Below are positions 681 through 62,745 of a stretch of 64,000 nt of DNA, piece by piece. The number at the start of each line of letters is the position of its first letter. Positions within the stretch are counted from its first letter, which is position 1. This DNA comes from Patescibacteria group bacterium (GTDB lineage: Bacteria; Patescibacteriota; Patescibacteriia; Patescibacteriales; UBA12465). The position numbers and the translations under genes were made by a program. Below the pieces are notes generated by a model that searched no databases, was not told the DNA's origin, and worked only from the letters and a program-made list of their open reading frames with translations. The stretch is taken from positions 93,459 to 157,458 of the forward strand of contig JBBACQ010000001.1 of assembly GCA_041656935.1 (NCBI GenBank), in the 5' to 3' direction.

Positions 681-877
681 AAAAACAAAAAAAATAATTT
701 TTATATCTTTTAATATTCTAACATATTTTAATAAAAAAACCAATATATTCTACGAAGATGATAAAGACAAGAAAGTTTACTTAAAATAAGAGATTTAATC
801 ATATAATACTGTCTGTTTTTAGATAAAAAAATAAAGCTCTAGCTAGAGCTTTACTTCTATATCTTCTAATTAATAAA

Positions 878-1906: not shown

Positions 1907-1968
1907 ATATAAAAAATAAATAATAAATAGTTATTATAGATACATTAAAACATATTTTAAATAATAAG

Positions 1969-3003
1969 TCAATATCTATCCATGAAACCCTCTATTTTGT
2001 CAATTATCCCCCTATTTTCGGCTAAATATGGGCTTTTTTTGATAATTTCAGCCCTTAAACCCATTGCTTCTTGAAAGACTTTTCTAGAAAAAATTAGGGC
2101 AAAAAACCAAAGAATAATATATCGACCAGCAGTCAATAATTTTATTTTTGGAGAAAAAGAGAGGTTTTTAGATTTAAACAAAATAATAAATTGATTAAGA
2201 GCTGAATAGTCAGAAATAATTTTCTTCTGCCTAACTTTATTTATTAATTTTTGCCGATAAGAAGATAGCGTTCGATGATGATACATTTTAGCTTCAGGCA
2301 AGAATAATATTTTAGCCCCAAGCAATTGTAAACGATAAGACAAATCAACATCTTCTTTATACATAAACATTCGCTCATCAAAAAATTGATAATAATTATC
2401 AAAACTATAGGCAACTTTCTTTAAAATATTTAGATTTAATAAAGCTCCCGCCCCACTAAAACCAAAGACTTCTTCTTCTAATAAAAAACGATTCTCTCCT
2501 GATTGGCCTTGACCAATATCAAAAAAACGATGAGCCTTATTTAAGCCGACACCACAGCTATCAATTATAGTAGTTTTAACATTGTTCGAAAAATCCCAAT
2601 AGAATATCTTAGGAACCAAAATGGCTATCGTCTCATCCGCTTTGTATTTTTGGACTAAATTGGCTATAAAATCGATATCTAATAAAACATCGGGGTTAAG
2701 CATTAAAAAAAGATTACTTCCCTGTTCAATCGACCAATTCATCATGCAATTATAGGGTTTAGAAAATCCTAAATTCATATCAGATCGCCAAATTTTTCCC
2801 GGCTTATCTTTCTGATAATCAATTAGATAATTATGATTACTGTTAAAATCAGAGTCGCTATTATCAACTGCTAGAAAAAATATTTCTAAATCAGGATTCG
2901 ATATCCGAGCTTTTTCTATCGCTTCAGATAAACTAAATAAAAATAAATTTAAGTATTTATAAGTTGACTGATTATAAGTTATAATTCCAATGCTTAATTT
3001 CAT
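1969..3003 (-). CDS. glycosyltransferase family 2
   Basis: N-terminal LSIGIITYN...AVDNSD and a downstream DxD-like region typical of GT-A fold GT2 enzymes. Ends in TGA. Confidence 0.8.
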   Translation of the reverse strand: MKLSIGIITYNQSTYKYLNLFLFSLSEAIEKARISNPDLEIFFLAVDNSDSDFNSNHNYLIDYQKDKPGKIWRSDMNLGFSKPYNCMMNWSIEQGSNLFLMLNPDVLLDIDFIANLVQKYKADETIAILVPKIFYWDFSNNVKTTIIDSCGVGLNKAHRFFDIGQGQSGENRFLLEEEVFGFSGAGALLNLNILKKVAYSFDNYYQFFDERMFMYKEDVDLSYRLQLLGAKILFLPEAKMYHHRTLSSYRQKLINKVRQKKIISDYSALNQFIILFKSKNLSFSPKIKLLTAGRYIILWFFALIFSRKVFQEAMGLRAEIIKKSPYLAENRGIIDKIEGFMDRY

Positions 3004-3037
3004 TTTTAAAAAATTAGAATATAATTAGATAAATAAT

Positions 3038-3056
3038 AAAGCGCTGACAGCGCTTT
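3038..3056 (-). terminator. putative rho-independent terminator after rpsI
   Basis: AAAGCGC-TGACA-GCGCTTT hairpin. On the minus strand it is followed by a T-rich run, and it lies 55 nt downstream of the rpsI stop. Confidence 0.5.
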
Positions 3057-3110
3057 ATTAGTATTTTAGAATAAAAATGATTAACGTTTTGACACTGTAT
3101 AGAGTGCGCT

Positions 3111-3698
3111 TTAACGTTTACTCCATTGCGGAGCCTTACGCGCTTTCTTAAGCCCCGGTTTCTTTCTTTCTTTCTTACGAGGATCTCTGGTAATATAACC
3201 ACTAACTTTTAAAATTGCCCTAAATTCTGGATCATATTTTACTAAAGCTCGAGCTATTCCGTGTCTAATTGCATCTATCTGACCTAAAACACCACCACCT
3301 TTTACCAGTATTGAAAAATCGAAATCTTTTAATTTAGAAACTAACTTTAGGGGTTGTAGAGCCACACTAGAATTTTCTTCTCTTTTAAAATATTCTAAAG
3401 AGCTAAAACCATTAATAGTAAAATTACCTTGCCCTTTTTCATACATTCTAACTTGAGCTACGGCTGTTTTTCTTCGCCCCACAGCTTCAATATATTTTCC
3501 AGAAATAGTTTTATTTTTAGCAACCACAACATCAGCTACTTCTTTGGTTGAAGGTTTAACAACTTTACTTGTTTTTGCTTTTACTTCTTTTTCTAAAACA
3601 ACCTTATCTTTTTTAATAACTGGTTTTTTAACACTAGGCTTCTTATCAGTTGTCTTACTAATAGTTGTATTCTTCTTGTTTTTTTTGACTTCTGCCAT
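3111..3698 (-). CDS. rpsI: 30S ribosomal protein S9 with a Lys-rich N-terminal extension of about 65 aa
   Basis: Core GRRKTAVAQVRMY...GGGVLGQIDAIRHGIARAL...KKARKAPQWSKR is canonical S9. Preceded by rplM as in the L13-S9 operon. Confidence 0.95.
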   Translation of the reverse strand: MAEVKKNKKNTTISKTTDKKPSVKKPVIKKDKVVLEKEVKAKTSKVVKPSTKEVADVVVAKNKTISGKYIEAVGRRKTAVAQVRMYEKGQGNFTINGFSSLEYFKREENSSVALQPLKLVSKLKDFDFSILVKGGGVLGQIDAIRHGIARALVKYDPEFRAILKVSGYITRDPRKKERKKPGLKKARKAPQWSKR

Positions 3699-3749
3699 TT
3701 TATTGGAAATTAATTTTAATAATTAATAAAAACTGAATTATTCGATTAT

Positions 3750-4106
3750 TTATCTAATAATTAATCTTTTTATAATATCTTTTCTCATTCTAGTTGGGGC
3801 TAACATGTCCAAAACAGCTCGTCTAAGAACATCCCCAGGATTAAGTGCGAAAACATCTTTCATTTTTTTCTCTTTTAATCCTCCCTGATAACCTGAATAA
3901 CTAAAGTATTTTTTTTGATCTATTTTTTTACCAGTAAACTTTACATTTTTAATATTTATAACTTCAACAATATCACCTAAATCTAAGTGCGGAACAAATT
4001 CTGGTTTATTTTTCCCACGTAAAATAGTGGCTATTCTAGTAGCTAAGCGACCGACAGCTTGCCCGTCAGCATCAATTTTATGGATTTTTCTCTCAATATT
4101 TTTCAT
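3750..4106 (-). CDS. rplM: 50S ribosomal protein L13
   Basis: IDADGQAVGRLATRIATILRGKNKPEFVPHLDLGD...YSGYQGGLK matches the L13 pattern. Confidence 0.95.
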   Translation of the reverse strand: MKNIERKIHKIDADGQAVGRLATRIATILRGKNKPEFVPHLDLGDIVEVINIKNVKFTGKKIDQKKYFSYSGYQGGLKEKKMKDVFALNPGDVLRRAVLDMLAPTRMRKDIIKRLIIR

Positions 4107-4127
4107 ATTTATATTTATTACCTTTAA

Positions 4128-4478
4128 TTAAACTAGCTCAATTTGAACTATTTGAGCGCCATCGCCCTGTCTAGCTCCAATTTTTATTATTCGACAATAA
4201 CCACCTGATCGATCTTTATATCTATCACCTAAAACCTCCATCGACTTTTTTATAGCCTGAGGTTGCAAAAGTATTCTTATTAAATTTCTTCTAGCAGTTA
4301 AATCGCCCTTCTTAGACATAGTTATAACCTTTTCCACTAAGGGTTTAACAGCCTTAGCCTTAGCTTCAGATGTTTTAACTTTTTCGTAAATAATAATACT
4401 AGAAGCTAGGTTTCGCAACATTAGTTCTCGTGGTTCTTTTTTTCTATCTAATTTTTTGATTTTATTTTTATGTCTCAT
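4128..4478 (-). CDS. rplQ: 50S ribosomal protein L17
   Basis: MRHKNKIKKLDRKKEPRELMLRNLASS...GGYCRIIKIG..GDGA. Lies in the conserved position downstream of rpoA. Confidence 0.95.
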   Translation of the reverse strand: MRHKNKIKKLDRKKEPRELMLRNLASSIIIYEKVKTSEAKAKAVKPLVEKVITMSKKGDLTARRNLIRILLQPQAIKKSMEVLGDRYKDRSGGYCRIIKIGARQGDGAQIVQIELV

Positions 4479-4503
4479 AATTATAAAAAATAATAAATTT
4501 AAG

Positions 4504-5313
4504 TTACTCTTTCTTCTTTTTCTTAGGTTTTATTGGTTCTTCTTCTTGGTCTTCTTTAATTGATTCTTTCTTCTTTTTTTTCTCGACAACGATTTCGTCT
4601 TTAGAATCAACTTCAACTGAACCATTAACATTAACTAGGGCTTTAAATTGATCAATCAGAATAGCAACCGATTGGTCAAAAGCTTCTTCTAAGGAAATAG
4701 TGCCATCAGTCTTTATTTCTAAAATAAGTTTATCCCAATTAGTCATCTTACCAACACGAACGTTTTCAACTTTATAACTAATACCTAAAATCGGTGAAAA
4801 AATTGAATCTACTTCGATATAATCAACCTCTTTAACATCTTTTTTGGTTTTATCGGCTAAGAAATAACCTCGACCATTAGCTACATAAATCTCCATAATT
4901 AAGCTACCAGTAGGGTCAGTGATATTTCCTAGAACTAAATCGGAGTTAACTATTTCTATTTGACTATCTTTTTTAATATCCTTGGCTGTCACTTGCTTCT
5001 TCCCCTGAACGTTTAATTCTAATTTTAAAATTTCCTCGGTATCAGTTAATATTTTTAATCGTAATTGTTTTAAATTCAAAATAATATCTAAAATATCTTC
5101 CTTAACTCCCGGCAAGGCCATGAATTCATGTTTAGCCCCTTTAATTTTAACCCCTACTACCGCTGAACCTGGTAAAGATGACAATAAAACTCGACGTAGA
5201 GCATTTCCGATTGTATTTCCATACCCAGGATATAATGGTTCCACGATAATTGAGCCATCTAAATTATTATCATGTTTGAAATCAATCTTTTTTGCTAAGG
5301 CTATATTTTCCAT
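4504..5313 (-). CDS. rpoA: DNA-directed RNA polymerase alpha subunit, N-terminal domain only plus K/E-rich tail
   Basis: GYGNTIGNALRRVLLSSLPG.A...HEF..LPGVKEDILDIILNLK is the alpha-NTD. The sequence after ...DQFKALVN is low-complexity (EKKKKKESIKEDQEEEPIKPKKKKKE). Confidence 0.9.
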   Translation of the reverse strand: MENIALAKKIDFKHDNNLDGSIIVEPLYPGYGNTIGNALRRVLLSSLPGSAVVGVKIKGAKHEFMALPGVKEDILDIILNLKQLRLKILTDTEEILKLELNVQGKKQVTAKDIKKDSQIEIVNSDLVLGNITDPTGSLIMEIYVANGRGYFLADKTKKDVKEVDYIEVDSIFSPILGISYKVENVRVGKMTNWDKLILEIKTDGTISLEEAFDQSVAILIDQFKALVNVNGSVEVDSKDEIVVEKKKKKESIKEDQEEEPIKPKKKKKE

Positions 5314-5356
5314 ATTTTTTTTAATTAAAATTAATTAAATTTAAATATTTTAAATT

Positions 5357-5992
5357 TTATTTTGAATAAAACTCAATAATCATGTGGGTCTTAACATTAG
5401 AAGGTAAATCCTGGGGTCTAGGTTCATGCAAAACCTTAGCGGACAACTCTTTAATATCTACAGCTAACCAACTCTTAAGCTCCGGTGATAGATTCTTTAA
5501 TTTTTCTGGTAAATCTCTGAAATACTTATTATTTTTAGAGCTTTTTTTAATTTTAATAATTTGTCCAATTTTAGCTTGATAAGACGGCACATCAACTTTT
5601 CTATCATTAACCGAAAAATGACCATGATTAACTAATTGTCTGGCCAAACTTCTAGAAGAAGCAAAACCAGCTCTATAGATAAGACTGTCTAGACGCATTT
5701 CTAAATGTCTTAAAAAATTAGGACCAACATCACCACCCTTTTTCTGAACTTTATTAAAAGATGTTCTAAATTGATTTTCATTTAAACCATACATCTTTTT
5801 AGTTTTTTGTTTTTCATTTAATTGCAAACCGTAATCACTAGATCGCTTTTTACCCTTAGGTCCATGAAAACCAGGAGGATAATTCCTCTTAACCATCGCG
5901 CATTTAGTTGATAAACAACGCTCTCCTTTCAAAAATAGCTTCTCTCCAATCCGACGACATTGTTTACATTTTGAATCTAGATTTTTTCCCAT
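5357..5992 (-). CDS. rpsD: 30S ribosomal protein S4
   Basis: CKQCRRIGEKLFLKGERC...YGLQLNEKQK...RLDSLIYRAGFASSR..ARQLVNHGH: S4 zinc-ribbon plus S4 RNA-binding domain. Confidence 0.95.
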   Translation of the reverse strand: MGKNLDSKCKQCRRIGEKLFLKGERCLSTKCAMVKRNYPPGFHGPKGKKRSSDYGLQLNEKQKTKKMYGLNENQFRTSFNKVQKKGGDVGPNFLRHLEMRLDSLIYRAGFASSRSLARQLVNHGHFSVNDRKVDVPSYQAKIGQIIKIKKSSKNNKYFRDLPEKLKNLSPELKSWLAVDIKELSAKVLHEPRPQDLPSNVKTHMIIEFYSK

Positions 5993-6015
5993 ATTTATTT
6001 TAAATTAATAGATTA

Positions 6016-6621
6016 TTAAACTCGACGAGGTTTTTTAGGACGACAACCATTATGAGGAACTGCGGTTACGTCTTTAATACTAGAGATAATTAAACCATTA
6101 GCATTCAAAGATCTAATAGCAGATTCTCGACCAGTTCCTACCCCAGCTACAAAAACCTTAACCTCTTCTAAACCGAATTCTTCTTTAGCTTTTAAAACTG
6201 CAATTTTAGCAATAATTTGAGCAGCATACGGAGTAGCTTTTTTAGCTCCCTTAAAGCCAGCCATTCCAGCACTGGCCCAAGAAATAACATTACCGGTTTT
6301 ATCTGTTAAGGAAATAATAGTATTATTATAGGTAGCATTGATATAAGCATGGCCAGATTTTATTTTAACCAGCTCTTTTTTCTTTCTTTTTTTGATTAAT
6401 TTTTTCTTACTTCGAGCCTGTTTATTCTTTTCTAACTTTTGTTTAATTTCTTCTGGTAAATCCTCTATTTCGTTTTTATTTTCTTCTTTAGAAATATCAT
6501 CATCGGAAAACAAATCATCATCAACCGAATCATCTTCCAGCGATTGATCATTTTTATTATCAATATCTTTTATTTCTTCTAAAGATTCATCAATTTTTAT
6601 ATCTTTTTTTTCTTCGGTCAT
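6016..6621 (-). CDS. rpsK: 30S ribosomal protein S11 with an acidic N-terminal extension of about 75 aa
   Basis: Core [41 protein letters not shown]...[11 protein letters not shown]...[15 protein letters not shown] is S11. Confidence 0.95.
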
Positions 6622-6650
6622 ATTTTATTTAAATTAAATTCTATTAAAAA

Positions 6651-7046
6651 TTAAGTTTTTTGAGTAGCTGCCTTGCTTTTACCAGAGCCCATAGTTAATC
6701 TTTTATTACCTCTAACGGTACGACTATTGGTCTTAGTTCTTTGACCTCGGGCGGGCAATCTCTTAGTGTGGCAAACTCCCCTTCTAGCTCCAATTTCTTT
6801 TAATCTTTTAATATTGCTAGCTACCTCTCGACGTAAATCTCCTTCAGTGGTATATTTTTTCTCAATAATATCACGCAAAAGGTTTACTTCATTTTCTTTT
6901 AGGTCTTTTACTCTAATATTGGGATCAACATTAGCTAATTTTAAAATATCTTTAGCAAATTTAGGCCCAACACCAAAAACATAAGTTAAAGCTACTTCTA
7001 CTCTTTTTTCGTTTGGTATTGTTACCCCAGATATTCTTACTATCAT
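6651..7046 (-). CDS. rpsM: 30S ribosomal protein S13
   Basis: RISGVTIPNEKRVEVALTYVFGVG...IKRLKEIGARRGVCH..RLPARGQRTKTNSRT. Confidence 0.95.
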   Translation of the reverse strand: MIVRISGVTIPNEKRVEVALTYVFGVGPKFAKDILKLANVDPNIRVKDLKENEVNLLRDIIEKKYTTEGDLRREVASNIKRLKEIGARRGVCHTKRLPARGQRTKTNSRTVRGNKRLTMGSGKSKAATQKT

Positions 7047-7073
7047 AAATTTATAATTAAATAATTTTAAAAA

Positions 7074-7187
7074 CTAGCCCTGTCTTTGTTTATGTTTAGG
7101 ATTTTTACAAATAACATAAACTCGACCCTTACGGCGAACTATTTTACAATCTTTACATATTTTTTTAGCGCTAGCTCGTACTTTCAT
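7074..7187 (-). CDS. rpmJ: 50S ribosomal protein L36
   Basis: Below the ORF-track size cutoff. Hand translation gives [37 protein letters not shown], in the canonical slot between infA and rpsM. Confidence 0.9.
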
Positions 7188-7246
7188 AAAAATAAAAAAT
7201 TAAAAAATAAAAAACAAAAAGAACTCCAATTAAGACTTCTAATAAA

Positions 7247-7486
7247 TTACAGACGGAAGGTAATACGCCCCTTACTTAAATCATAAGGGCTAATTTGAAC
7301 CTTAACCTTATCACCCGGCAAAAGTCTAATTTTGTTCATTCTCATTTTGCCTGACAAATGACCCAAAATTTCATGCCCATTTTCTAGTCTTATTTTAAAA
7401 CTAGCAGCTGGCATCAATTCCAAAATTTCACCTTTTATTTCAATGAAATCTTTAGAGTCAATTATAGAATCGTTTTTATTATCCAT
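7247..7486 (-). CDS. infA: translation initiation factor IF-1
   Basis: [65 protein letters not shown]. The track start at 7492 is a GTG; the first ATG is at 7486. Confidence 0.9.
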
Positions 7487-7499
7487 CAACACAAAAAAC

Positions 7500-7526
7500 T
7501 TTGATAAAGACTAATTCTTTATCAAA
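7500..7526 (-). terminator. hairpin plus T-run downstream of alaS, just upstream of infA
   Basis: TTTGATAAAG-7 nt-CTTTATCAAA (10-bp stem). On the minus strand it is followed by GTTTTTTGT. Confidence 0.5.
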
Positions 7527-7584
7527 ATCTAAAAAATACAAAAATAAATATTTCTAAAATATTTAATGTAAAATAATTATATAT

Positions 7585-9486
7585 TTATTTACTATTATTG
7601 TCAAGAGGACTAAGAATGGCCTTAATTCGCCTTACCCCGGAAGAAGAGCTTTCTTCTTTTTGTATTTTAAAAACACCCATATCGGCCAAATTATCAACAT
7701 GTGGTCCTCCGCAAATTTCCTTAGAAAAAATCTCTTGACCGACGGATTTAAAATCACCGATAAAATATACTTTTACTTTTTCACTATATTTTTTTTCAAA
7801 AACACCCGTTGCTCCTTTGGCCTTAGCCTCTTCGACGGTCATCTCCTCACATTTGACCTGATATTTTCCGCGAATAACTTCGTTCACTAAATCTTCAACT
7901 TGTTTTTTCTGTTCATCAGTCATTTTTTCACCATGAGAAAAATCAAACCTCAAACGTTCAGCGGTGATATTACTTCCTCGTTGCTCAACTTGAGAACCTA
8001 AAACTCTTCTTAAGGCCTCTAATAATAAATGAGAAGCTGTGTGCAATTTAGTAGTAGCCTCACTTTGATCGGCTAAACCACCCTTAAATTTACCAGCTGA
8101 AGCGGTTTTGGATAGTTCTTGATGCTTAGACATGGCTGATTGATATTCATTCAAAAAATTATCGGAGGGTTTAATGTTTTTCTCGGCCATTATTTCTTGA
8201 GTCATTTCTAACGGATAACCATGACTTTGGAATAGATTAAAAACAATTTCTCCATTAATTACTTCGCCCTTTTCGGCAATTAAACTTAAAACCTTTTCCC
8301 CTTTTTCTATAGTTTTGCCGAATTTCTCTTCTTCTTCCCTAATTGACTGGGAAATAAAATCAGCATTTCTTTGAAGTTCCTGATAGTCACCTCCATAAAA
8401 ATCTATAATTATTTGAGCTAAACTTGCCAACCAATTATCTCTATTAATACCTATTTGACGAGAAGATCTTAAAGCCCGTCTGACCAAACGTCTAATAATA
8501 TAACCTTGATCGGTATTAGAAGGACTGAGTTTTTTATCATCACCTAAAAGAAAAACGGCTGATTTAATATGATCAGCTATTATCTCAAAATGTTTTTTGT
8601 TATCATCATATTTTTTACCAGACAATTCTTCAATTTTTTGGATAATATTTTCTAGAGAATCAATTCTGAAAATATTATCTAAATTATTAACAACCATAGC
8701 TAGTCTTTCTAAACCACCACCAAAATCAACATTTTTATTTTTTAATTCCTCCCAACCATTAACTGTTTTTTGGTATTGCATAAAAACGGAGTTACCAATT
8801 TCTACAAAACGACCGCAATCACAATTTAAATGACAGTGCTCACCAAACTTTGGATCATGTTGTTTTCCGGTATCATAAAAAGTTTCACTATCTGGTCCAC
8901 CTAGCTCCCCTACAGCATCACCTCTCTGCCACCAATTTTTATCACGATAAGCAAAAATTCTTTGGGTTGAAAAATTAATTTCTTCTCCCGAACCACTATC
9001 TCCTTTTTCAGTAGTTTCCGGGCCTTCTTCAACCTCTAAACCATATTTTTTATAAATATTCTTTAAAATTTCTATTGATTCATTATCTTTAGAAATGTTT
9101 TTTCCATCACCAACATAAACGGTTTGATAAATTTTATCTATATCTAATTTAAGTTCATCCATCATAAATTGGAACCACCAATTAAGCTGTTCCTCTTTAA
9201 AATAATCTCCCAAGCTCCAATTTCCTAGCATCTCAAAAAAAGTATTGTGACGACCATCACCAACTTCATCAATATCTTCAGAGCGGAAGCATTTTTGGCT
9301 ATTAACCAATCTAACGCCGGCCGGATGATTTTCACCCAATAAATACGGGACTAAAGGCGACATCCCGGAGTTTACAAAAAGCAAACTGGGATCATTTTCG
9401 GGAATTAAAGAAGCGCTGGAAATAACTTGATGGTTTTTCCCCGCGAAGAATTGTAGGTATTTTTGGCGTATTTCTTTAGTAGTCAT
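7585..9486 (-). CDS. alaS: alanine--tRNA ligase, short form (no C-Ala domain)
   Basis: TTKEIRQKYLQFFAGKNHQVISSASLIP.NDPSLLFVNSGM; editing-domain HTASHLL and CGGPHV motifs are present. 633 aa. Confidence 0.9.
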   Translation of the reverse strand: MTTKEIRQKYLQFFAGKNHQVISSASLIPENDPSLLFVNSGMSPLVPYLLGENHPAGVRLVNSQKCFRSEDIDEVGDGRHNTFFEMLGNWSLGDYFKEEQLNWWFQFMMDELKLDIDKIYQTVYVGDGKNISKDNESIEILKNIYKKYGLEVEEGPETTEKGDSGSGEEINFSTQRIFAYRDKNWWQRGDAVGELGGPDSETFYDTGKQHDPKFGEHCHLNCDCGRFVEIGNSVFMQYQKTVNGWEELKNKNVDFGGGLERLAMVVNNLDNIFRIDSLENIIQKIEELSGKKYDDNKKHFEIIADHIKSAVFLLGDDKKLSPSNTDQGYIIRRLVRRALRSSRQIGINRDNWLASLAQIIIDFYGGDYQELQRNADFISQSIREEEEKFGKTIEKGEKVLSLIAEKGEVINGEIVFNLFQSHGYPLEMTQEIMAEKNIKPSDNFLNEYQSAMSKHQELSKTASAGKFKGGLADQSEATTKLHTASHLLLEALRRVLGSQVEQRGSNITAERLRFDFSHGEKMTDEQKKQVEDLVNEVIRGKYQVKCEEMTVEEAKAKGATGVFEKKYSEKVKVYFIGDFKSVGQEIFSKEICGGPHVDNLADMGVFKIQKEESSSSGVRRIKAILSPLDNNSK

Positions 9487-17108: not shown

Positions 17109-17768
17109 TTAAGAGCTAATTTGCGAGAGCGCGAAGGCAAAACCGCCAAGACCATTCCACCTGCGACCAGGACCGCTATAGTTCGTACTCAACCAGGAAC
17201 CACCATCAAGGCAATCAACGCGAAGCAATCTCAAGTCGCCATTAGAATCTTTGATGGACTTATGCATGACTGCAATCCATGTCAAACCCATAGCTTCTTC
17301 AAGCTCCTTATCAGAGAAAACCTCACGGATAAGGCAGGCAACTTCAGAGTTGGGTATTTTGAATTTACGCCTAACAGCAAAGGCGCGAATCTTCCTAGTA
17401 ATCCGATCACTATCCTCGAAAAGCAGGCCCTTGAGGACAGCTATCTCAGTTGTCACTCCCGAGGTCGGCTTGAATTCTTTGGAACATAATATTTTCTTAG
17501 CATAATCGCTAACTCGGAACCCTTTGCCTTCCAAGCGGGCAATCCATTCTTCACCAGTAGTACCATCACTGGTGACTGAGAAATAGATGATTCCGTCTTT
17601 CTCACGCCACCTTGGCTTGATTAAGGAAACCTGTAATTCACCAGCGTTCATCATGCGCACGGCTTCTTTGGGATCAATAATCCCGGTTTGCAACATGACA
17701 TTTTTAACCATAGCATTAAGTTTACCGGTTTCAATCCCGGAAATCAAAAAATTAGTTTTATTACTCAT
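17109..17768 (-). CDS. hypothetical protein, compositionally atypical (about 50% GC)
   Basis: 219-aa ORF with a strong SD (AAGGAGG) about 6 nt upstream of the ATG. Hand counts give 30/60 and 31/60 G+C in lines 17101 and 17401, versus 13/60 in flanking line 16741. I recognise no family. Confidence 0.75.
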   Translation of the reverse strand: MSNKTNFLISGIETGKLNAMVKNVMLQTGIIDPKEAVRMMNAGELQVSLIKPRWREKDGIIYFSVTSDGTTGEEWIARLEGKGFRVSDYAKKILCSKEFKPTSGVTTEIAVLKGLLFEDSDRITRKIRAFAVRRKFKIPNSEVACLIREVFSDKELEEAMGLTWIAVMHKSIKDSNGDLRLLRVDCLDGGSWLSTNYSGPGRRWNGLGGFAFALSQISS

Positions 17769-17837
17769 TATAACCTCCTTGCGCTATATTGCGCTTTTTT
17801 AATTTGCCCTATTCCGGAGCCAGAACTACAATCTTTA

Positions 17838-17889
17838 TGATTACAGCTATAAAACACCTTCATAATAAAGAATCTCATAGCTGTAATCA
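17838..17889 (-). promoter_or_regulatory. perfect 13-bp stem hairpin in the 5' leader of the orphan gene
   Basis: TGATTACAGCTAT-26 nt-ATAGCTGTAATCA, located between the predicted promoter and the RBS. Confidence 0.5.
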
Positions 17890-17911
17890 ATTTTTAAAAG
17901 TACAACAAATT

Positions 17912-17940
17912 ATTATAACATAATAGTGATAATAAGTCAA
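17912..17940 (-). promoter_or_regulatory. near-consensus sigma-70-type promoter for the orphan gene
   Basis: On the minus strand: TTGACT (17940-17935), 17-nt spacer, TATAAT (17917-17912), about 145 nt upstream of the ATG. Confidence 0.5.
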
Positions 17941-18016
17941 GTTTAAAAAACAATTAAAATATTTTTTATGATAATTCTTGGAAATATTAAAAAAATATAG
18001 TAAAATTAATTTTTTA

Positions 18017-18090
18017 CTTGCCAGCAATTCAAAATTTCAGGATATTCGCTATAAAATTTTTCATGCCACTTTTTCTAAAAAGTGCCATAA
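18017..18090 (+). repeat. single copy of the 77-nt 'arm + GCCAC hairpin' repeat unit
   Basis: CTTGCCAGCAATTCAAAATTTCAGGATATTCGCTATAAAATTTTTCATGCCACTTTTTCTAAAAAGTGCCATAA is near-identical to the units at 30807-30959. Confidence 0.8.
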
Positions 18091-18094
18091 AAAA

Positions 18095-19800: not shown

Positions 19801-20073
19801 GCTATCTATTTTTTAAGTTACGTTAATTAAATTGTTTATAAACTCCACCTAAATCTACTGAATAAAAAAGATGGATTTAATAAACAATTTAATTATTAAA
19901 CTTTTTTGTCGAAGAACTAAATAACCCCATATTATAGCATATATTCATAAATATGTCAAGGATTTAACTAAAAAGAGGTAAACTAAAAACAAAAAACCTC
20001 CCCAATGAGAAGTCTTTAGAGCTAATAAACACTAATTACTATAAAAAAATAATACCCTAATGCCGACCAGATA

Positions 20074-24548: not shown

Positions 24549-24620
24549 TTGTGTTTATCGTGAACATTCAAAAATTTTGGAAAAAATATTTTTTAGGCCA
24601 CTTTTTTAGAAAAAGTGCCA
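24549..24620 (+). repeat. variant copy of the arm + hairpin repeat unit
   Basis: TTGTGTTTATCGTGAACATTCAAAAATTTTGGAAAAAAT resembles 31083-31121. It is followed by GGCCACTTTTTTAGAAAAAGTGCC, ending 10 nt before the GT4 ATG. Confidence 0.7.
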
Positions 24621-24630
24621 TAATAAAACT

Positions 24631-27937: not shown

Positions 27938-28663
27938 TTAAATAACTAATTTATCTTGTAATTTTTCCTTAGCCAAAATCTGAGCTTCTAATAAACTATC
28001 AAAGGTCCCAGCATCAATCCAAGCCCCATTTACCATGGCAACATCTAATTCGCCCTTCTCTAAATATATTCGGTTAACATCGGTAATTTCTAATTCTCCG
28101 CGTTCTGATGGTTTCAAATTTTTTGCTATTTCTACTATGCTACTATCATAAACATACAAACCAGTAACACAATAATTAGATTTCGGATTTTTTGGCTTTT
28201 CTTCAATAGAAATAGCTCGATTATTAGAATCAAACTCAACTACGCCAAATCTTTCAGGGTCAGGGACATGTTTAGCAAAAATTTTAGCCCCACTTTTAAA
28301 ATTTTTAATATCGTCGGAAAAATCATCTTCAAAAATGTTATCGCCCAAAATCATACAAACATTGTCGTTATCAATAAACTTTTGCCCAATAATAAAAGAC
28401 TGAGCCAAGCCTTCAGGTTTATCTTGAATTTCATAAGTAAATTTTACTCCAAACTCTCGACCACTACCCAATAAGTTTAAGTAATGGCCCGCCTGCTCGG
28501 GGGAAACAATTATTAAAATATCTTTAATTCCCGCCTTTATCAAAGTGTTCAAGGGATAATAAATCATTGGTCGATTATAAACTGGTAGTAATTGTTTAGA
28601 TGTTACCTTGGTACAAGGTCTAAGACGAGTTGCACTTCCCCCTGATAAAATAATTCCTTTCAT
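27938..28663 (-). CDS. rfbA: glucose-1-phosphate thymidylyltransferase (short form)
   Basis: [18 protein letters not shown]...[16 protein letters not shown]; adjacent to rmlD and rmlB. Confidence 0.75.
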
Positions 28664-28753: not shown

Positions 28754-29674
28754 TTATTTTAAATTACTTGAATATTCCTTAAGCGCTTCTTTCCATGATC
28801 TCAAGGCTGGTAATTTAGAATTAGCTAAAACTGAATATTTAGGTCGTTTAGCTGGACGAGGAAACTTATCAGCTGGAACTGGTCTTATTTTAATATTAAT
28901 CTTTTTCAATCTAAATAACTCTTTAGCAGCATCATACCAAATCGCTGGGTCACTATTTCTTACATGATAAAAACCAAAATCATTTTTGCTCTCTAAAATT
29001 TCTCTGGTTTGTCGAGCTAGATCCGGAGTATAGGTAAAACAACTCAATTCTTCGCTAACCACTTTAATCTCTCTTTTCCCCTTAGCTATTCGCCAAATTA
29101 AATCAAAAAAATTCTCTTTAGAATCAACTGATTCTCCCTTAGGACCAAAAAGTTTAGAGGTTCTAATAACATAATATTTTAACTTTTTATTAACCAATCT
29201 TTGAATTTCAACTTCTCCGGCCATCTTAGTCAAACCATATTTATTTATCGGACATCTTTCATCATCCTCTAAAAAACCACCCTTCTCTTTAAATTTTAAA
29301 AGACATTCATTATTACAATCATTTTCGTGACAAATATCTCCCCCAAAAACATAATCACTAGAATAATGAATCAAGATTGAGTTATTAACAATCGCGGCCT
29401 TACCGATATATCTCAAAGCATCTCCATTAATTTTGCTCGCTAATTTAAATTCATCTTCAAACTCCTCACATCTATCAACCGCATTATAGGCAGCTGTATT
29501 TATAATGATGTCTGGTTTAATTTTGTTAATTTTCGGAACAATTAAATCATACTCTAACAGATTTAAATCGTTTTTATCATAATTAATAATCTGATAATCT
29601 GAAAAATTAGAAAATTCCTTATTTAATTGATCAGCTAGATTTCCGCCAGCTCCTAAAATCAAAACTTTTTTCAT
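28754..29674 (-). CDS. rfbD: dTDP-4-dehydrorhamnose reductase
   Basis: ILGAGGNLADQL, SSDYVFGG, YGLTKMAGE. Contains a Cys-rich insert between YVF and YG. Confidence 0.85.
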   Translation of the reverse strand: MKKVLILGAGGNLADQLNKEFSNFSDYQIINYDKNDLNLLEYDLIVPKINKIKPDIIINTAAYNAVDRCEEFEDEFKLASKINGDALRYIGKAAIVNNSILIHYSSDYVFGGDICHENDCNNECLLKFKEKGGFLEDDERCPINKYGLTKMAGEVEIQRLVNKKLKYYVIRTSKLFGPKGESVDSKENFFDLIWRIAKGKREIKVVSEELSCFTYTPDLARQTREILESKNDFGFYHVRNSDPAIWYDAAKELFRLKKINIKIRPVPADKFPRPAKRPKYSVLANSKLPALRSWKEALKEYSSNLK

Positions 29675-29678
29675 AATT

Positions 29679-30647
29679 CTATTTTTTTAATTTTTGCCAC
29701 CACGAAGGGTTCTCTTTATACCAATTAATTGTTTTTTCTAAACCAACAATAAAGTCTATTTGAGGAGCCCAACCTAATTCTCGCTTAATTTTAGAAAAAT
29801 CAATGGCATAACGCCAATCATGACCTGGTCTATCAGCGACATATTCAATCATTTCGTCTTTCTCATCCATTAATTTTAAAATATTTAATGTAATATCAAT
29901 ATTTTTAATTTCATTATCGCCACCCAAACAATAAGTTTCGCCAATCTTTCCTTTTTTAATAATCATTTCTACCCCACGATTATGATCATCAACGTGAATC
30001 CAATCACGAATATTTTCTCCTTGACCATAAACGGGAATCTTTTTCCCTTCGATAAGATTAGTAATAAAAAGTGGAATTAATTTTTCTGGATACTGATAAG
30101 GACCATAATTATTAGAACAATTGGAAATGGTAATTGGTAGTTTATGAGTATGAAAATAAGCTCGAACTAAGTGATCGGAACTAGCCTTGGAAGCACTATA
30201 AGGTGAACGAGGGTCATAAGGTGTTTTTTCATTAAATTTAGGATCATTTAATTCTAGAGAACCAAAAACTTCATCAGTCGAAACATGATGAAAACGAATA
30301 TTGCCATTATTTTTAGCACAATCTAATAAAATACGAGTTCCCTCGACATTGGTTTTTATAAAATCAGCACTATTCTCTATAGATCTATCAACATGACTCT
30401 CGGCCGCGAAATGAACAATCAGATCAACCTCTTTGACAATACCATTAACTAAATTATAATCGCAAATATCTCCCTGAATAAATTTGTAATTCTCTCCTTC
30501 TTGAATATCTTTTAAATTTTCTAAGTTTCCAGCGTAAGTTAATTTATCTAGGTTAATAATATTATCTTTAGGGTTAGATTTAAGCCAGTATCTAATGAAA
30601 TTAGAGCCAATAAAACCAGCTCCGCCGGTTACCAAAATTCTAGCCAT
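29679..30647 (-). CDS. rfbB: dTDP-glucose 4,6-dehydratase
   Basis: ILVTGGAGFIGSNF, HFAAESHVDRS, STDEVFG, YSASKASSDH. Confidence 0.9.
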   Translation of the reverse strand: MARILVTGGAGFIGSNFIRYWLKSNPKDNIINLDKLTYAGNLENLKDIQEGENYKFIQGDICDYNLVNGIVKEVDLIVHFAAESHVDRSIENSADFIKTNVEGTRILLDCAKNNGNIRFHHVSTDEVFGSLELNDPKFNEKTPYDPRSPYSASKASSDHLVRAYFHTHKLPITISNCSNNYGPYQYPEKLIPLFITNLIEGKKIPVYGQGENIRDWIHVDDHNRGVEMIIKKGKIGETYCLGGDNEIKNIDITLNILKLMDEKDEMIEYVADRPGHDWRYAIDFSKIKRELGWAPQIDFIVGLEKTINWYKENPSWWQKLKK

Positions 30648-30806
30648 AATGGTTTGTTTTAATAATAATTAGTTATTTTATTATACTATAATAAAGTTTT
30701 GGAGTAAAGAATAACCTTTTTGTGCTATTTTTTTAGGAAAAATACCCACTTGACCATCTCTGGCGAAAAAAATTAGCAAACTAAAGTTTTTTTTAAAAAT
30801 AATAAT

Positions 30807-30959
30807 TTTTTCATGCCACTTTTTTAGAAAAAGTGGCCCAAAAATCGCCAGCAATTCAAAATTTCAGGACATTCGCTATAAAGTTTTTCATGCCACTTTT
30901 TTAGAAAAAGTGGCCCAAAAATCGCCAGCAATTCAAAATTTCAGGACATTCGCTATAAA
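30807..30959 (+). repeat. tandem duplication, 2 x 77 nt (arm + GCCAC hairpin)
   Basis: 71 nt starting at CATGCCAC (30812 and 30889) are identical by my alignment. Each unit has the hairpin GCCACTTTTT-TAG-AAAAAGTGGC (30815-30837 and 30892-30914). Confidence 0.9.
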
Positions 30960-31062
30960 AGCTAGTAAAATTTAGAACTCGGATGAGCTTCGCTCATCCT
31001 CAAACAGCTAAATTTTACACGCTTTTTACGCTTATGTCTAATCTGAAATTTTTCAAAGCTGG
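30925..31062. repeat. extended imperfect palindrome A (about 138 nt), candidate MITE or structured RNA
   Basis: Outer arms CCAGCAATTCAAAATTTCAGGACATTCGC / ACGCTTATGTCTAATCTGAAATTTTTCAAAGCTGG; inner stem 30965-30975/31008-31018 (11 bp, all Watson-Crick); apical hairpin GGATGAG-CTTCG-CTCATCC. Confidence 0.7.
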
Positions 31063-31090
31063 CAAGTAAAAAAAATTAATTTCTTGTTTT

Positions 31091-31225
31091 CTTGCGAACA
31101 TTAAAAAATTTTGGGGAAATTGCGAGTGTAGAAACCTTGCAAAATTTGGTTGTTTGAGGCGTAGCCGAGTTCTAAATTTTGCTAGGTTTCATAACGAGCA
31201 ATCCAAAATTTTTTAGTTCGCTAAG
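31091..31225. repeat. extended imperfect palindrome B (about 135 nt), inverted homologue of A
   Basis: Outer arms 31091-31114/31203-31225; inner stem 31131-31147/31174-31190 (17 bp, 1 mismatch). The reverse complement aligns to A through AAAATTTAGAACTCGG...CCTCAAACA.C.AAATTTT. Confidence 0.7.
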
Positions 31226-31344
31226 TTTTTTTGGACACTTTTTTTGTTAAAAAAAGTGTCTTAATAAATAAGTAAGTATACAAAAAACTTTAGTTCGCTA
31301 TTTTTTGGATGCTTTTTTTATTAAAAAAGTGTCTTAATAAATAA
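31214..31344 (+). repeat. diverged tandem repeat, again with 77-nt period, each unit carrying a hairpin variant
   Basis: TAGTTCGCTA at 31214 and 31291. Hairpins GACACTTTTTTT..AAAAAAAGTGTC (31234-31260) and GATGCTTTTTTT..AAAAAAGTGTC (31308-31333); both are followed by TTAATAAATAA. Confidence 0.75.
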
Positions 31345-31383
31345 TTCAAGTTTTAAATATTCGTAAGAAAAATATTTAAATCA

Positions 31384-31836
31384 CTATGAAATAGTATAAG
31401 GAGAATCTTTATCATCTTCCCAACGGATTTCATCAATTTCTTCTTTCTTGCCCTCTCCCTTATACAACTTATCTGGAAAATTTAGACAATATGAGTCACC
31501 GGGGCCCAAGGCCTTATAACCATGAACCACTCCCGGTGGAACAACAATTAAAGTCGGCTCCCCTTCTCCAGCTTCAATACTTAGATGTTCCCCCTTAGTT
31601 TCACTGTCTTCTCGTCGGTCCCAAAGATGAAGACTAAACTTTCCCGGACCAACAAAAACAAAACAATCACTCTGATTTTTGTGCTCATGCGGACCACGAA
31701 TAACTCCCGGCTTAGTAACACTGATATAGGCCATTTCTGGCCGATAATCAAATTCATCGGACCGATAAACCTCACTCAACCAACCACGATCATCGTGATA
31801 TTGGTCTAATTTTTTAATAATTACTCCATTTATCAT
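31384..31836 (-). CDS. rfbC: dTDP-4-dehydrorhamnose 3,5-epimerase (short cupin form)
   Basis: HDDRGWLSEVYR...IRGPHEHK...LIVVPPGVVHGYKA: cupin epimerase pattern; rml context. Confidence 0.8.
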   Translation of the reverse strand: MINGVIIKKLDQYHDDRGWLSEVYRSDEFDYRPEMAYISVTKPGVIRGPHEHKNQSDCFVFVGPGKFSLHLWDRREDSETKGEHLSIEAGEGEPTLIVVPPGVVHGYKALGPGDSYCLNFPDKLYKGEGKKEEIDEIRWEDDKDSPYTIS

Positions 31837-59218: not shown

Positions 59219-59494
59219 AACAAAATTTAAAATTAAAAATTAGATAATTTCATTACTTAAATTATAAAATAATATTACCTTTACTATTATAAAATAAAGA
59301 TAAAAAAGATATAAACACAAGATAAAAATTGAGGAATAAATAAATGTCAGAAAGAGAGCAGAGTTTATTATTAAACAACTATTAACACTAGATTTGGATA
59401 AAATAAAATTGCCCGAAAGCAACAAATATTCTAAACCAGCTGATTAATATAAAAAAGTAATATTCTTAAAATATTGAAGACTATTCTAAATGTG

Positions 59495-59568
59495 AGCCGC
59501 CTGTCGGGTTCGAACCGACGACCTACTGTTTACAAGACAGTCGCTCTAGCCAACTGAGCTAAGGCGGC
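59495..59568 (-). tRNA. tRNA-Thr (anticodon UGU)
   Basis: Hand-folded cloverleaf: acceptor GCCGCCT/AGGCGGC, D arm GCTC/GAGC, anticodon stem ACTGT/ACAGT with loop CTTGTAA, T arm GTCGG-TTCGAAC-CCGAC. CCA is not encoded. Confidence 0.9.
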
Positions 59569-59573: not shown

Positions 59574-59685
59574 TTCAATTATCAATTATCAATTACCAAT
59601 TATCAATTATTTAGTCGCGTGTCATATAACGAATTCGGGGGCTATACTCGGCAATTAATTGAAAATTGAAAATTGATAATTGAAC
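59574..59685. repeat. heptamer-repeat inverted repeat in the tRNA-Lys/tRNA-Thr spacer
   Basis: Five TCAATTA-type heptamers (59574-59610) face TTGAAAA/TTGATAA heptamers (59651-59685). The first 14 bp pair perfectly, giving an imperfect stem of about 27 bp. Confidence 0.7.
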
Positions 59686-59696
59686 ATTCACTAAAG

Positions 59697-59769
59697 TGCG
59701 CCCAGCAGGATTCGGACCTGCGACCTTCTGCTTAAAAGGCAGCTGCTCTACCAGCTGAGCTATAGGCGC
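59697..59769 (-). tRNA. tRNA-Lys (anticodon UUU)
   Basis: Acceptor GCGCCTA/TGGGCGC, D arm GCTC/GAGC, anticodon loop CTTTTAA, T arm GCAGG-TCCGAAT-CCTGC. CCA is not encoded. Confidence 0.9.
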
Positions 59770-59939
59770 AAATTTATCTAAATAAAACAAATTAGACCAA
59801 CGGTCTATTTATTTAGATTATAATTAAAAAATAAAAATAAATCAATAGTTTTTAGATTAACCATAAACTATGGATAAAAAGTGAATTAATAGTGGAAAAC
59901 AAACTTGATTTAAAAAAGCAGTTAAGATATTATATAAAC

Positions 59940-61325: not shown

Positions 61326-61380
61326 AATTAATACAGTGGTTACTAACTCAAAAATATTATTTATAATTAAATAGAAAATT

Positions 61381-62698: not shown

Positions 62699-62703
62699 AA
62701 AAC

Positions 62704-62733
62704 AAAAAAGACTTTTTCCGAAAAGTCTTTTTT
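62704..62733. terminator. bidirectional terminator between recR and rplU
   Basis: AAAAAAGACTTTT-TCCG-AAAAGTCTTTTTT. Confidence 0.65.
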
Positions 62734-62745
62734 GTTTGAAAAATA

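Follow-up and report, generated by a model that had tools for sequence, protein, structure and literature searches.

Patescibacteria (CPR) have small, compact genomes, and descriptions of repeat families in them are rare. What, then, occupies the 736 nt (30648-31383) between rmlB and an rmlC-like gene in the 64-kb stretch of Patescibacteria DNA analyzed here (the window)? This is the largest gap between co-directional neighbors in the window, where such gaps (n = 51) have a median of 31 nt; 33 are shorter than 60 nt, and the initial annotation had likewise put most of them below that length. The gap had also been described as free of any credible ORF, and indeed the single ORF of at least 40 aa within it is a 57-aa frame with a TTG start and no Pfam match. 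The stop codon of the rmlC-like gene directly borders the start of the repeat island that fills the gap. We interpret the island, with moderate confidence, as a cluster of one non-coding, hairpin-forming intercistronic repeat family comparable to REPINs, BIMEs, ERIC sequences and MITEs (Table 1). The family itself is new but of a kind familiar among bacterial intergenic repeats, and the island is neither a broken gene nor a proven regulator.

Table 1. Genes, repeat modules and dispersed units discussed in the text, by position in the window.
Feature	Position	Strand	Remarks
Dispersed partial unit	18000..18094	-	Small hairpin core 18065-18086, linker, 3'-arm copy 18020-18056, centre-like flank
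Internally deleted unit	24554..24630	+	5'-arm start joined to small hairpin (core 24597-24619)
rmlA	27938..28663	-	Pfam
rmlD	28754..29674	-	Pfam
rmlB (dTDP-glucose 4,6-dehydratase)	29679..30647	-	Pfam; 100% identity to an NCBI protein from a Patescibacteria MAG
Putative rmlB promoter	30680..30708	-	TTTACT-17 nt-TATAAT; scan match 10/12; directly upstream of rmlB
Proximal remnant	30718..30797	-	3'-arm fragment and linker ~30752-30797; degenerate small hairpin 30722-30749
Two identical 77-nt tandem units	30807..30959	-	TRF; per unit: 3'-arm copy, GAUUUUUGG, small hairpin GCCAC-T5-CTA-A6-GTGGC, linker
Big rod hairpin copy 1	30920..31066	- (same sense as rml genes)	Outer stem 31063-31058 : 30929-24
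A/T-rich centre AAGTAAAAAAAATTAATTTCTTGTTTTCTT	31064..31093	.	Between the 5' ends of both big hairpins; symmetry centre of the 598-nt palindrome
Big rod hairpin copy 2	31091..31227	+ (antisense to rml genes)	Outer stem GCGAAC 31094-31099 : GTTCGC 31216-31221
U7 tract and small hairpin a	31222..31274	+	U7 31226-31232; core GACAC-T7-GTT-A7-GTGTC 31234-31260; directly 3' of big hairpin 2
Small hairpin b, right half	31297..31349	+	Core GATGC-T7-ATT-A6-GTGTC 31308-31333; two G-U pairs on + strand
rmlC-like gene (dTDP-4-dehydrorhamnose 3,5-epimerase family, 150 aa)	31384..31836	-	Pfam PF00908, E = 1.1e-14; gene order kept in relatives

The unit of the family consists of a rod-like hairpin of ~140 nt, a U5-U7 tract that follows the rod end after 2-5 nt in all sense copies, and a hairpin of ~25-45 nt with a T-run/A-run stem. 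In the island two diverged units lie head-to-head, and the 77-nt tail of each, made of 3' arm and small hairpin, is tandemly duplicated on its side. The initial annotation had listed a degenerate hairpin, two identical 77-nt units, two ~135-nt palindromes in opposite orientation and a second, diverged tandem pair of the same period, and each of these is present as part of the one family. Self-comparison, which had been proposed as a check, finds 30792-31357 to be 66% self-complementary across 598 nt (E = 3.5e-53). TRF describes the left pair with period 77, 2.0 copies and 100% matches, the hairpin cores lying at 30815-30837 and 30892-30914 and the arm copies at 30847-30883 and 30924-30960. The right pair is placed at 31227-31377 with period 74 and 75% matches; a repeat search recovers the 77-nt spacing on both sides of the island, with right-half families spaced 77/73. 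There, a 3'-arm remnant (31278-31298) precedes small hairpin b, and the two together make up the second 77-nt period. Three copies of the 23-mer GCCAGCAATTCAAAATTTCAGGA are present in the window, with 0 expected. Parts of the island are also recognizable elsewhere: the A/T-rich centre flank is found again at 18000-18019 and in the relative L012, the segment with small hairpin a is near-identical to L004:9850-9890, and the proximal remnant is, by direct comparison, orthologous to a second, degenerate promoter-adjacent hairpin of L004 and L010.

An unusually long gap that contains a tandem pair of 100% identity could be the remnant of a decayed gene or an artefact of assembly, and 77 is among the k-mer sizes that some assemblers use. 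However, the diverged right-hand pair repeats with the same period of 77 nt at ~75% identity, a pattern that no assembler can produce; the period itself is therefore real, while the copy number of two for the perfect unit rests on one assembly of the island. Assemblies made independently from other samples (L004, L010, L011 and L012) contain the same unit, and the island is not a fold-back chimera, since its halves are 66% and not 100% identical. As for a lost gene, which the initial annotation had suggested looking for in relatives, relatives have gaps of 56-69 nt and no gene at the rmlC-rmlB position, and the gap in the window gives no ORF or Pfam signal. This explanation, to which we attach hardly any credence, is largely refuted.

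The two palindromes fold as rods of ~135-140 nt whose z-scores relative to shuffles range from -7 to -11, and a covariance model assigns them to opposite strands. Copy 1 has an MFE of -62.6 kcal/mol (z = -8.6) and scores 140.6-144.3 bits on the minus strand versus 45-48 bits on the plus strand with covariance model R1, and its apex is GGATGAGC-GAA-GCTCATCC. For copy 2 the MFE is -52.7 kcal/mol (z = -7.1) and the scores are 149.3 bits on the plus strand versus 51 bits on the minus strand. Both sides have changed in 15 of 54 rod pairs, compared with 6.7 +/- 1.8 in shuffles (0 of 500 reach 15) and 2-5 in slid registers, a covariation drawn from five sequences, four of one clade. Sense-strand rods contain 25 G-U pairs versus 5 A-C, and the sense strand folds 6-8 kcal/mol better than the antisense strand in all three copies tested. 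The stems of the small hairpins covary as well (GCCAC/GTGGC, GACAC/GTGTC, CACAC/GTGTG). Conserved internal loops of the rod are AGCGUAGAAA, CUGUUUGA, GAGUUC and UUUCAUAGCG, the largest internal loop (8/5 nt) adjoining the apex; conservation is highest in the internal loops and the apex-proximal region and lowest at the termini. The unit is 84.6-88.1% identical between genomes whose rmlB and rmlC share 77.6-81.9%, the full window unit with big and small hairpin (31091-31272) being 84.6% identical to that of L004. A candidate promoter within the rod (TAGACA-17-TAAAAT) was rejected: in other copies a T of its -10 is replaced by C along with the pairing partner, and because the change is compensated it is the structure, not a promoter, that is conserved. 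As a possible promoter of the rods themselves, there is only a weak TAATTT-like box at a distance of 5-11 nt upstream, without a conserved -35.

The claim that the island splits the dTDP-rhamnose operon did not hold. The region of the predicted rmlB promoter can be aligned in L002, L004, L005, L009, L010, L012, L014 and L023. TTTACT is kept in L002, L004, L005, L010, L012 and L014; in L009 (TTTACG, shorter spacing) and L023 (TGACAA) the -10 hexamer is kept but the -35 has diverged. The promoter sequence is found directly upstream of rmlB in most relatives whether the island is present or absent, several of them having the short gap only, and the island therefore does not newly split the operon. 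Judging from this predicted promoter, rmlC and rmlB look like transcription units that were already separate. As to whether the two genes are adjacent in relatives, gene order is the same and the spacer varies, being 56-69 nt long or holding a unit or an unrelated insert. A perfect antisense TTGACA-16-TATAAT inside rmlB (30433-30460) was discarded as largely a by-product of coding, and is not kept in L009 or L010.

The initial annotation had left room for the modules being unique to this locus, and they are not. The family is present at three loci in the window, namely the island and the partial units at 18.0 kb and 24.6 kb. The unit at 18.0 kb is bordered by a methyltransferase stop codon on one side and by the promoter of the following gene on the other, and is 89% identical to 30847-30921 across 75 nt. 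The unit at 24.6 kb stops 11 nt ahead of the ATG of a GT4 glycosyltransferase gene, and L012 has a unit at the orthologous site (GT4 proteins 77% identical). At the rml site, L004 and L010 have a single unit in sense orientation upstream of rmlB and L012 has an antisense unit cut by the contig end, and the rod is thus present in both orientations at this locus. In the distant Patescibacterium L011 (47% GC) a unit is located between DUF1361 and GT2_3 genes, a site at which the L011 relatives L019-21 have none. In L011, in L012 and at 24.6 kb in the window, 11-17 nt separate the end of the small hairpin from the ATG. Overall, seven of nine copies are oriented toward the downstream gene, and several are immediately upstream of glycan genes. 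The window has two full rods, both in the island, with none at other places in ~270 kb of loci, and no unit copies occur in 13-21 kb of four relatives. Across 185,579 representative genomes a 26-nt core pattern has one matching site, which is L011, and in viral contigs it has none. The 23-mer of the youngest subfamily has 0 matches in the representative genomes and one in metagenome contigs, the 18-kb locus of the same organism. Two looser patterns gave 4 and 1 matches in viral contigs, all by chance and without a covariance-model match, and a weak covariance-model match at L009:19856-19970 was unrelated on inspection.

Presence of the unit at the rml site changes between close relatives. L002, L005-8, L009 and L023, representing four lineages, have a 56-69-nt gap without it, and the gap of L014 contains an unrelated GC-rich repeat insert. 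Although L004, L005 and L014 share 95-96% identity in rmlB, the first has the unit, the second has nothing and the third has the unrelated insert, in line with the earlier suggestion of a hotspot. The element is probably a mobile intercistronic one, and probably also acts as an RNA stem-loop or terminator. Several observations speak against mobility. A Pfam scan of the ~55 window ORFs finds no transposase, RAYT, integrase or recombinase, nor is there a transposase beside the units in the retrieved loci of relatives. Comparison by eye of filled sites (L004, L010, window) with empty ones (L005, L002, L009) reveals no direct repeat of the kind left by target-site duplication. Additionally, full rods are low in copy number, and conservation of loops and apex over termini is the opposite of a classical TIR transposon and typical of functional RNA. 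The orientation of most copies toward the downstream gene and the position of several just upstream of glycan genes point the same way.

The same observations bear on a second explanation, in which the unit is a host-beneficial structured RNA of surface-glycan operons, acting in cis from a leader or intercistronic position, and the island is a local duplication of that RNA. We regard this as possible, though on balance improbable. Such an RNA could be an attenuator or terminator, a processive-antitermination element, an RNase III processing site, an insulator or a small RNA gene. Covariation, conserved internal loops and G-U strand bias are what it would lead one to expect, as are conservation above that of the flanking genes, the U5-U7 tract after every sense copy and the small number of full rods. 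Its sense units also stand directly upstream of glycosyltransferase genes (L011, L012, window 24.6 kb) and upstream of rmlB (L004, L010, window copy 1). However, the unit is dispensable, being absent in L005 (compared with L004, 95% rmlB identity), L002, L009, L023 and L019-21 (compared with L011); antisense copies occupy the rml site in the window (copy 2) and in L012, and no Rfam family matches. The unit at the rml site is not in the rmlB leader, because the rmlB promoter lies downstream of it. The association with glycan genes is subject to bias, rmlB having been the route by which most loci were retrieved. Nothing demonstrates the control of surface-glycan expression that the initial annotation had envisaged. 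A bolder proposal, which we think unlikely, is that the unit belongs to a hitherto undescribed class of patescibacterial structured RNA and is a portable cassette between cistrons, which would regulate or insulate surface-glycan genes (by termination, attenuation or antitermination) and spread between and within genomes under selection on the RNA fold. If so, the island would be the first example seen caught amplifying.

Long inverted repeats around a core of ~300 nt, upstream of surface-glycan genes, could also form a switch that is driven by inversion or recombination, either an inverton or copy-number phase variation, and that governs rhamnose and glycan gene expression. The rod orientation at the rml locus varies between relatives, and the perfect 77-nt tandem pair could expand or contract. 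We nevertheless judge such a switch to be very improbable: the window contains no recombinase gene by Pfam, and the inverted halves, at only 66% identity, are a poor substrate for homologous inversion. Inversion would not move the rmlB promoter, since it lies outside the repeats on the rmlB side, and flipping a single rod changes little because the rods are near-palindromic.

Among known systems, REPINs form hairpins in ssDNA or mRNA with common compensatory changes; they cluster through insertion beside each other, build up tandem arrays and decay until singlets are left (PMC3116915). REPs, palindromic units of 20-40 bp that carry an unpaired tag (GTAG or CGTC) at one end, lie mostly after ORFs and between unidirectional genes (PMC3733652). 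The unit shares this kind of location. Like REPINs and BIMEs, it is a non-coding, extragenic, imperfect hairpin on the ~100-nt scale with compensatory changes, and the island shares with them its clusters of probable adjacent insertions, fixed-spacing tandem arrays and decay to single fragments (PMC3116915). Unlike them, the unit has no RAYT (Y1) transposase gene in the window, a gene that mobilises REPINs and BIMEs and usually has the repeats on its flanks, and its copy number appears low, where RAYT-associated repeats reach tens to hundreds of copies per genome. With respect to the inverted-doublet criterion for REPINs, the rod is a long hairpin with compensatory changes whose arms are not themselves REP hairpins, that is, not 20-40-bp REP palindromes. 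The phyla listed for REPs in the cited work do not include Patescibacteria (PMC3116915, PMC3733652). The small hairpins, which are preceded by a U-run and followed by A-rich sequence, have no GTAG or CGTC tag. Four of five rod copies have an internal GUAG, which does not stand at the end of a short palindrome and is a lead only; the motif GCGUAG...CGUG may resemble the RfaH ops element.

The unit also resembles ERIC sequences (IRUs) of enterobacteria. These are imperfect palindromes of ~127 bp that lie in intergenic regions which are transcribed; relatives differ in whether an orthologous site holds one, either orientation is found, and the sequence is strongly conserved where present. They may act on mRNA stability at the RNA level, and no mobilising mechanism is known for them. 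The unit differs in sequence family and host phylum and in being a composite of rod, U-tract and second hairpin. MITEs such as the Correia elements of Neisseria are short, non-coding and A/T-rich, symmetrical by inversion over their whole length and co-transcribed with their neighbors; elements of this type may carry terminators or outward promoters and show insertion polymorphism. The unit is comparable in these traits and also has terminal inverted repeats, its outer stems (GCGAAC/GTTCGC, GCCAGC/GCTGGC, GCGCGC/GCGCGC) varying among copies. In contrast to MITEs, it has no target-site duplication found at its insertion sites, no parent insertion sequence seen, and termini that are its least conserved part. 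Sense units resemble intrinsic terminators in having a G-C-closed stem followed within 2-5 nt by U5-U7, whereas the usual terminator stem is 5-14 bp long and the unit has a rod of ~60 bp with conserved loops and occurs in antisense copies. The window's one ordinary terminator-like hairpin (62691-62746) looks different. The small hairpin was rejected as the general terminator type of this genome, as hairpins of its type are limited to the three repeat loci apart from one ordinary bidirectional terminator and one weak match. Two further candidates were set aside: 6S RNA (RF00013), a ~180-nt rod with a large central bubble, has no Rfam match at E <= 10, and the unit is multi-copy and dispensable; integron attC sites have conserved RYYYAAC/GTTRRRY core sites and a nearby integrase or cassette array, while the outer stems here vary and no integrase is found in the window. 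At E <= 10 or E <= 1, the island and the L004 and L011 copies gave sub-threshold chance matches to miRNA-precursor models only.

Returning to a mobile intercistronic repeat, we infer a possible course of events from the anatomy, family membership, presence and absence, covariation and promoter conservation that were directly observed. Units would insert or duplicate into the short stretch, not itself essential, that separates a stop codon from the promoter or start codon after it. The lineage of the window may at first have had a single unit, antisense to the rml genes and common to L012, and a second unit, in sense, would then have landed head-to-head beside it. The 77-nt tail of 3' arm and small hairpin would subsequently have been tandemly duplicated on both sides, and fragments would have been left at two further intergenic sites. 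The machinery of propagation probably recognises a folded single strand, either ssDNA or RNA, and recognition of that kind would account for the compensatory changes, for the conservation of internal loops and for the high sequence conservation of the unit wherever it occurs. The units may be co-transcribed with rmlC, in which case the sense rod with its U-tract could serve as a stem-loop barrier or intrinsic-type terminator that ends the rmlC message, and transcription of rmlB-rmlD-rmlA would start from a separate promoter immediately downstream of the island.

In annotation, the long gap between rmlC and rmlB should be taken neither for a lost gene nor for a sign of a disrupted rhamnose pathway. 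A scan of the window with Rfam 15 at gathering threshold returns two tRNAs only, and a tRNA/tmRNA scan places two tRNAs near 59.6 kb and finds nothing else. The analysis yields a concrete repeat family with a usable covariance model, which is more conserved than neighboring housekeeping genes and varies in presence among close relatives. A mobile family would point to a mobilising activity not yet known from these organisms, and a functional RNA would be a new cis-element tied to surface-glycan genes. The family can also break metagenome assemblies, and the 5.4-kb contig of L012 has two copies of the element, one at each end.

The window has a G+C content of 31%, and its ORFs include genes for ribosomal proteins, a mur/ftsW cluster, tRNA synthetases, MreB/MreC, glycosyltransferases and other housekeeping functions; Pfam searches of about 55 ORFs found no transposase or integrase. 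On the - strand, the order is rmlC-like (31836..31384), gap, rmlB (30647..29679), rmlD, rmlA and hisS. The tight gene packing described in the initial annotation holds, with a median of 31 nt between co-directional genes and 33 of 51 such gaps under 60 nt, and the 736 nt separating rmlC from rmlB are the longest of the 51. As first described, the gap contains no credible ORF (the sole ORF of at least 40 aa is a 57-aa TTG ORF without a Pfam match), and the hairpin, tandem pairs and extended palindromes listed for it are all present. Self-comparison shows 30792-31357 to be self-complementary at 66% over 598 nt (E = 3.5e-53), and repeat searching gives a 77-nt spacing on both sides. The two palindromes fold into long rods, with minimum free energies of -56 to -63 kcal/mol for copy 1 and -45 to -53 kcal/mol for copy 2 (z-scores -7 to -11).

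By comparison with relatives, the basic unit resolves into three parts: an imperfect rod hairpin of ~140 nt, a U5-U7 tract 2-5 nt past its closing stem, and a short N5-T5-7-loop-A5-7-N5′ hairpin, whose lower stem can be extended through the U-tract and the A-rich 3′ flank. We define as 'sense' the strand that reads rod, U-tract, small hairpin. A covariance model of the rod, run with filters off, finds only two full rods in the window. The table lists these together with the partial units and the state of the rmlC-rmlB gap in loci fetched from other genomes (L handles).

Unit copies and remnants in the window, and the rmlC-rmlB gap across genomes
Feature	Coordinates	Length	Sense strand	Description
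Rod copy 1	31066..30920		-	
Tail of copy 1	30959..30807			Two identical 77-nt repeats (3′ arm + GAUUUUUGG + small hairpin + linker); TRF 2.0 copies, 100% identity, copy number as assembled
Decayed remnant	30797..30718			Arm plus hairpin; abuts rmlB promoter
Rod copy 2	31091-31227		+	
Tail of copy 2	31222-31349			Diverged pair, same 77-nt period; TRF 31227-31377, 74-nt period, 75%
A/T-rich centre	31064-31093	30 nt		Separates facing 5′ ends of copies 1 and 2
Partial unit	18000-18094			Small hairpin + 3′ arm, 89% identical to island copy
Partial unit	24554-24630			5′-arm start fused to small hairpin; ends 11 nt before GT4 glycosyltransferase ATG
Window gap	30648-31383	736 nt		Island
L002 gap		65 nt		Empty
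L005-L008 gap		69 nt		Empty
L009 gap		66 nt		Empty
L023 gap		56 nt		Empty
L014 gap		131 nt		Unrelated GC-rich repeat
L004 gap		299 nt		Single sense unit + second, degenerate small hairpin
L010 gap		305 nt		Single sense unit + second, degenerate small hairpin
L012 gap		more than 218 nt		Antisense rod; contig begins within rod

The hairpin is under selection, and the unit is something other than neutral spacer DNA. All five full rods share the helix and internal-loop layout, and pairing is kept in 90.8% of cells of their alignment. Changes on both sides affect 15 of 54 pairs, against 6.7 +/- 1.8 in shuffles (none of 500 reaches 15) and 2-5 pairs when the partner column is slid. In the apical stem, GGATGAGC/GCTCATCC in window copy 1 corresponds to AGCCAAGC/GCTTGGCT in L004, with four of eight pairs compensated; the stem is cut to GGC/GCC in copy 2 and L011. 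The outer stems also covary (GCGAAC/GTTCGC, GCCAGC/GCTGGC, GCGCGC/GCGCGC). Unpaired AGCGUAGAAA, CUGUUUGA, GAGUUC and UUUCAUAGCG vary little or not at all, the GC-rich L011 copy included. In the small hairpin, covariation is seen at the two outer pairs across ten copies, three of which contain U-G pairs. Unit identity reaches 84.6% between window copy 2 and L004 and 88.1% between L004 and L010, whereas rmlB and rmlC of these genomes are only 77.6-81.9% identical; identity to the L011 copy is 76%. The sense strand has 25 G-U pairs versus 5 A-C pairs and folds better by 6-8 kcal/mol in all three copies tested, a bias that points to one functional strand, which may be RNA or single-stranded DNA.

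Gene order around rmlC-rmlB is kept in related Patescibacteria. Among L004, L005 and L014, identity is 95-96% for rmlB and 90-92% for rmlC; three different gap states at such identity indicate rapid turnover of the site. We regard gene decay and misassembly as all but excluded as explanations of the gap. GC-rich hairpin repeats at L014:607-737 (CCAGCCTTCGCTGG with two copies of CGCTGGAATGACAAGG) and L002:16405-16474 (CGCGCCTTCGCGGG) fill the exact intergenic slots of the A/T-rich window units and are unrelated to them. In L004, ~9 kb of additional genes (284-9248; a TrmB-family regulator, an acetyltransferase, an AAA_14/DUF4143 ATPase and several unknowns) separate rpmE (L31) from rmlC, which are adjacent in the window and other relatives; the neighbourhood is thus a general insertion hotspot.

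The unit also occurs at other sites. The opposite end of the L012 contig lies inside a unit as well (3′ arm and small hairpin); 11 nt downstream follows a GT4 gene that is the ortholog, at 77% aa identity, of the window 24631 gene, where the window carries an internally deleted unit. Together with the rods at the rml site, this indicates two orthologous insertions common to the window and L012. Multi-copy repeats typically break assemblies, and the L012 assembly is broken by these. Searching 185,579 representative genomes with a 26-nt core pattern yielded one further copy, in L011, a Patescibacteria MAG of 47% G+C. Here the unit is flanked by a DUF1361 gene and a glycosyltransferase gene of GT2_3 type, its small hairpin ending 17 nt before the glycosyltransferase ATG; it is absent from the corresponding 103-nt gap in the relatives L019-21. 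Pattern scans of a viral collection gave no genuine copy. A ~155-nt rod-like palindrome of a different sequence family (GGGGCTTGTCGCCAA...TTGGCGACAAGCCCC, rich in AAAATTTT) is present at L019:1360-1520 in a different Patescibacteria genome, and long rod palindromes may be recurrent in these genomes. In the window, the 18000-18094 partial unit separates the stop codon of a methyltransferase gene from the promoter of the gene that follows. The adjoining 17769-18000, downstream of the 18-kb module, holds a TTGACT-17-TATAAT promoter and a ~150-nt leader that includes both a hairpin and an AAGGAGG ribosome-binding site; the 219-aa gene behind the leader (17768..17109) has no Pfam match, and no Rfam family matched.

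A sigma-70-type promoter sequence, TTTACT-17-TATAAT, lies immediately upstream of rmlB (30708..30680). It can be aligned, with its -10 hexamer kept, in every relative examined; the -35 is also kept in L002, L004, L005, L010, L012 and L014 and has diverged in L009 and L023. Several relatives keeping the promoter have a short gap with little else inside, and from this conservation rmlB-rmlD-rmlA is very probably driven by its own predicted promoter in most of these genomes. The island occupies the slot from the rmlC stop codon to the rmlB promoter, so the initial description of an island that splits the operon is misleading, and we found nothing pointing to its suggested control of surface-glycan expression. 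The island is unlikely to be an invertible or phase-variable switch, since the repeats do not include the promoter, its two halves share only 66% identity and the window has no recombinase. A perfect TTGACA-16-TATAAT match inside rmlB (30433-30460, +), antisense to the gene and directed into the island, is kept in L014 and absent in L009 and L010; we rejected it as a promoter because it is largely a by-product of coding sequence (DYNLVN..VK).

A functional cis-acting RNA, which would be compatible with mobility, is the leading alternative reading, to which we give a minority weight. Conserved loops with covarying stems, the small number of full rods, and a sense-oriented placement immediately ahead of glycosyltransferase genes (L011, L012, window 24.6 kb) speak for it, but this glycan-gene association is biased, most loci having been retrieved through rmlB. 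Moreover, the unit is missing from close relatives, two rods, those of window copy 2 and L012, which are probably orthologous, are antisense to the rml genes, and the unit stands upstream of the rmlB promoter.

We favor the initially proposed nest of miniature mobile elements, because the unit shares many traits with non-autonomous repeats of the REPIN/BIME, ERIC or MITE kind: dispensability, presence or absence among near-identical genomes, either orientation at one locus, insertion beside existing copies, fixed-period tandem arrays, decay to fragments, contig breaks, and patchy occurrence across distant hosts with high sequence conservation where present. Much like this, REPINs form hairpins in single-stranded DNA or mRNA with common compensatory changes, and cluster by insertion beside existing elements, with tandem arrays and with singlets arising by decay (PMC3116915). 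REPs typically lie after ORFs, between genes of one direction, and many are believed to act as RNA elements (PMC3733652). The folded strand would be what propagation recognises, and a sense rod and U-tract co-transcribed with rmlC would act as a stem-loop barrier or terminator. We do not file the unit as a REP/REPIN, because its small hairpins lack the GTAG/CGTC end tag and no RAYT gene was seen by Pfam among the ~55 window ORFs scanned. Unlike a classical MITE, it has no target-site duplication that we could find, and its termini are its least conserved part. No Rfam family matches it, and we found no relevant report of such elements in the literature on Patescibacteria/CPR. The unit is a new family belonging to a known type of element, and present evidence does not support a new type of system. 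Such repeats are rarely described in this phylum, and the family now has a workable covariance model.

Other structures were seen in the window. Between tRNA-Thr (59494-59568, -) and tRNA-Lys (59696-59769, -), two inverted heptamer arrays (TCAATTA x5 and AATTGAA x4.6; 59574-59688) jointly form a ~115-nt hairpin. At 59892-61656, a DnaB ORF of just 357 aa, whose DnaB_C domain covers profile positions 1-144 of 255, precedes a gap of 415 nt and then an ORF of 91 aa, so that this gene may have been split, interrupted or frameshifted. Convergent genes flank an ordinary bidirectional terminator-like hairpin (A6-GAC-T4...A4-GTC-T6) at 62691-62746, and a 273-nt gap contains a hairpin with 27-nt arms that are 89% complementary (19824-19895).
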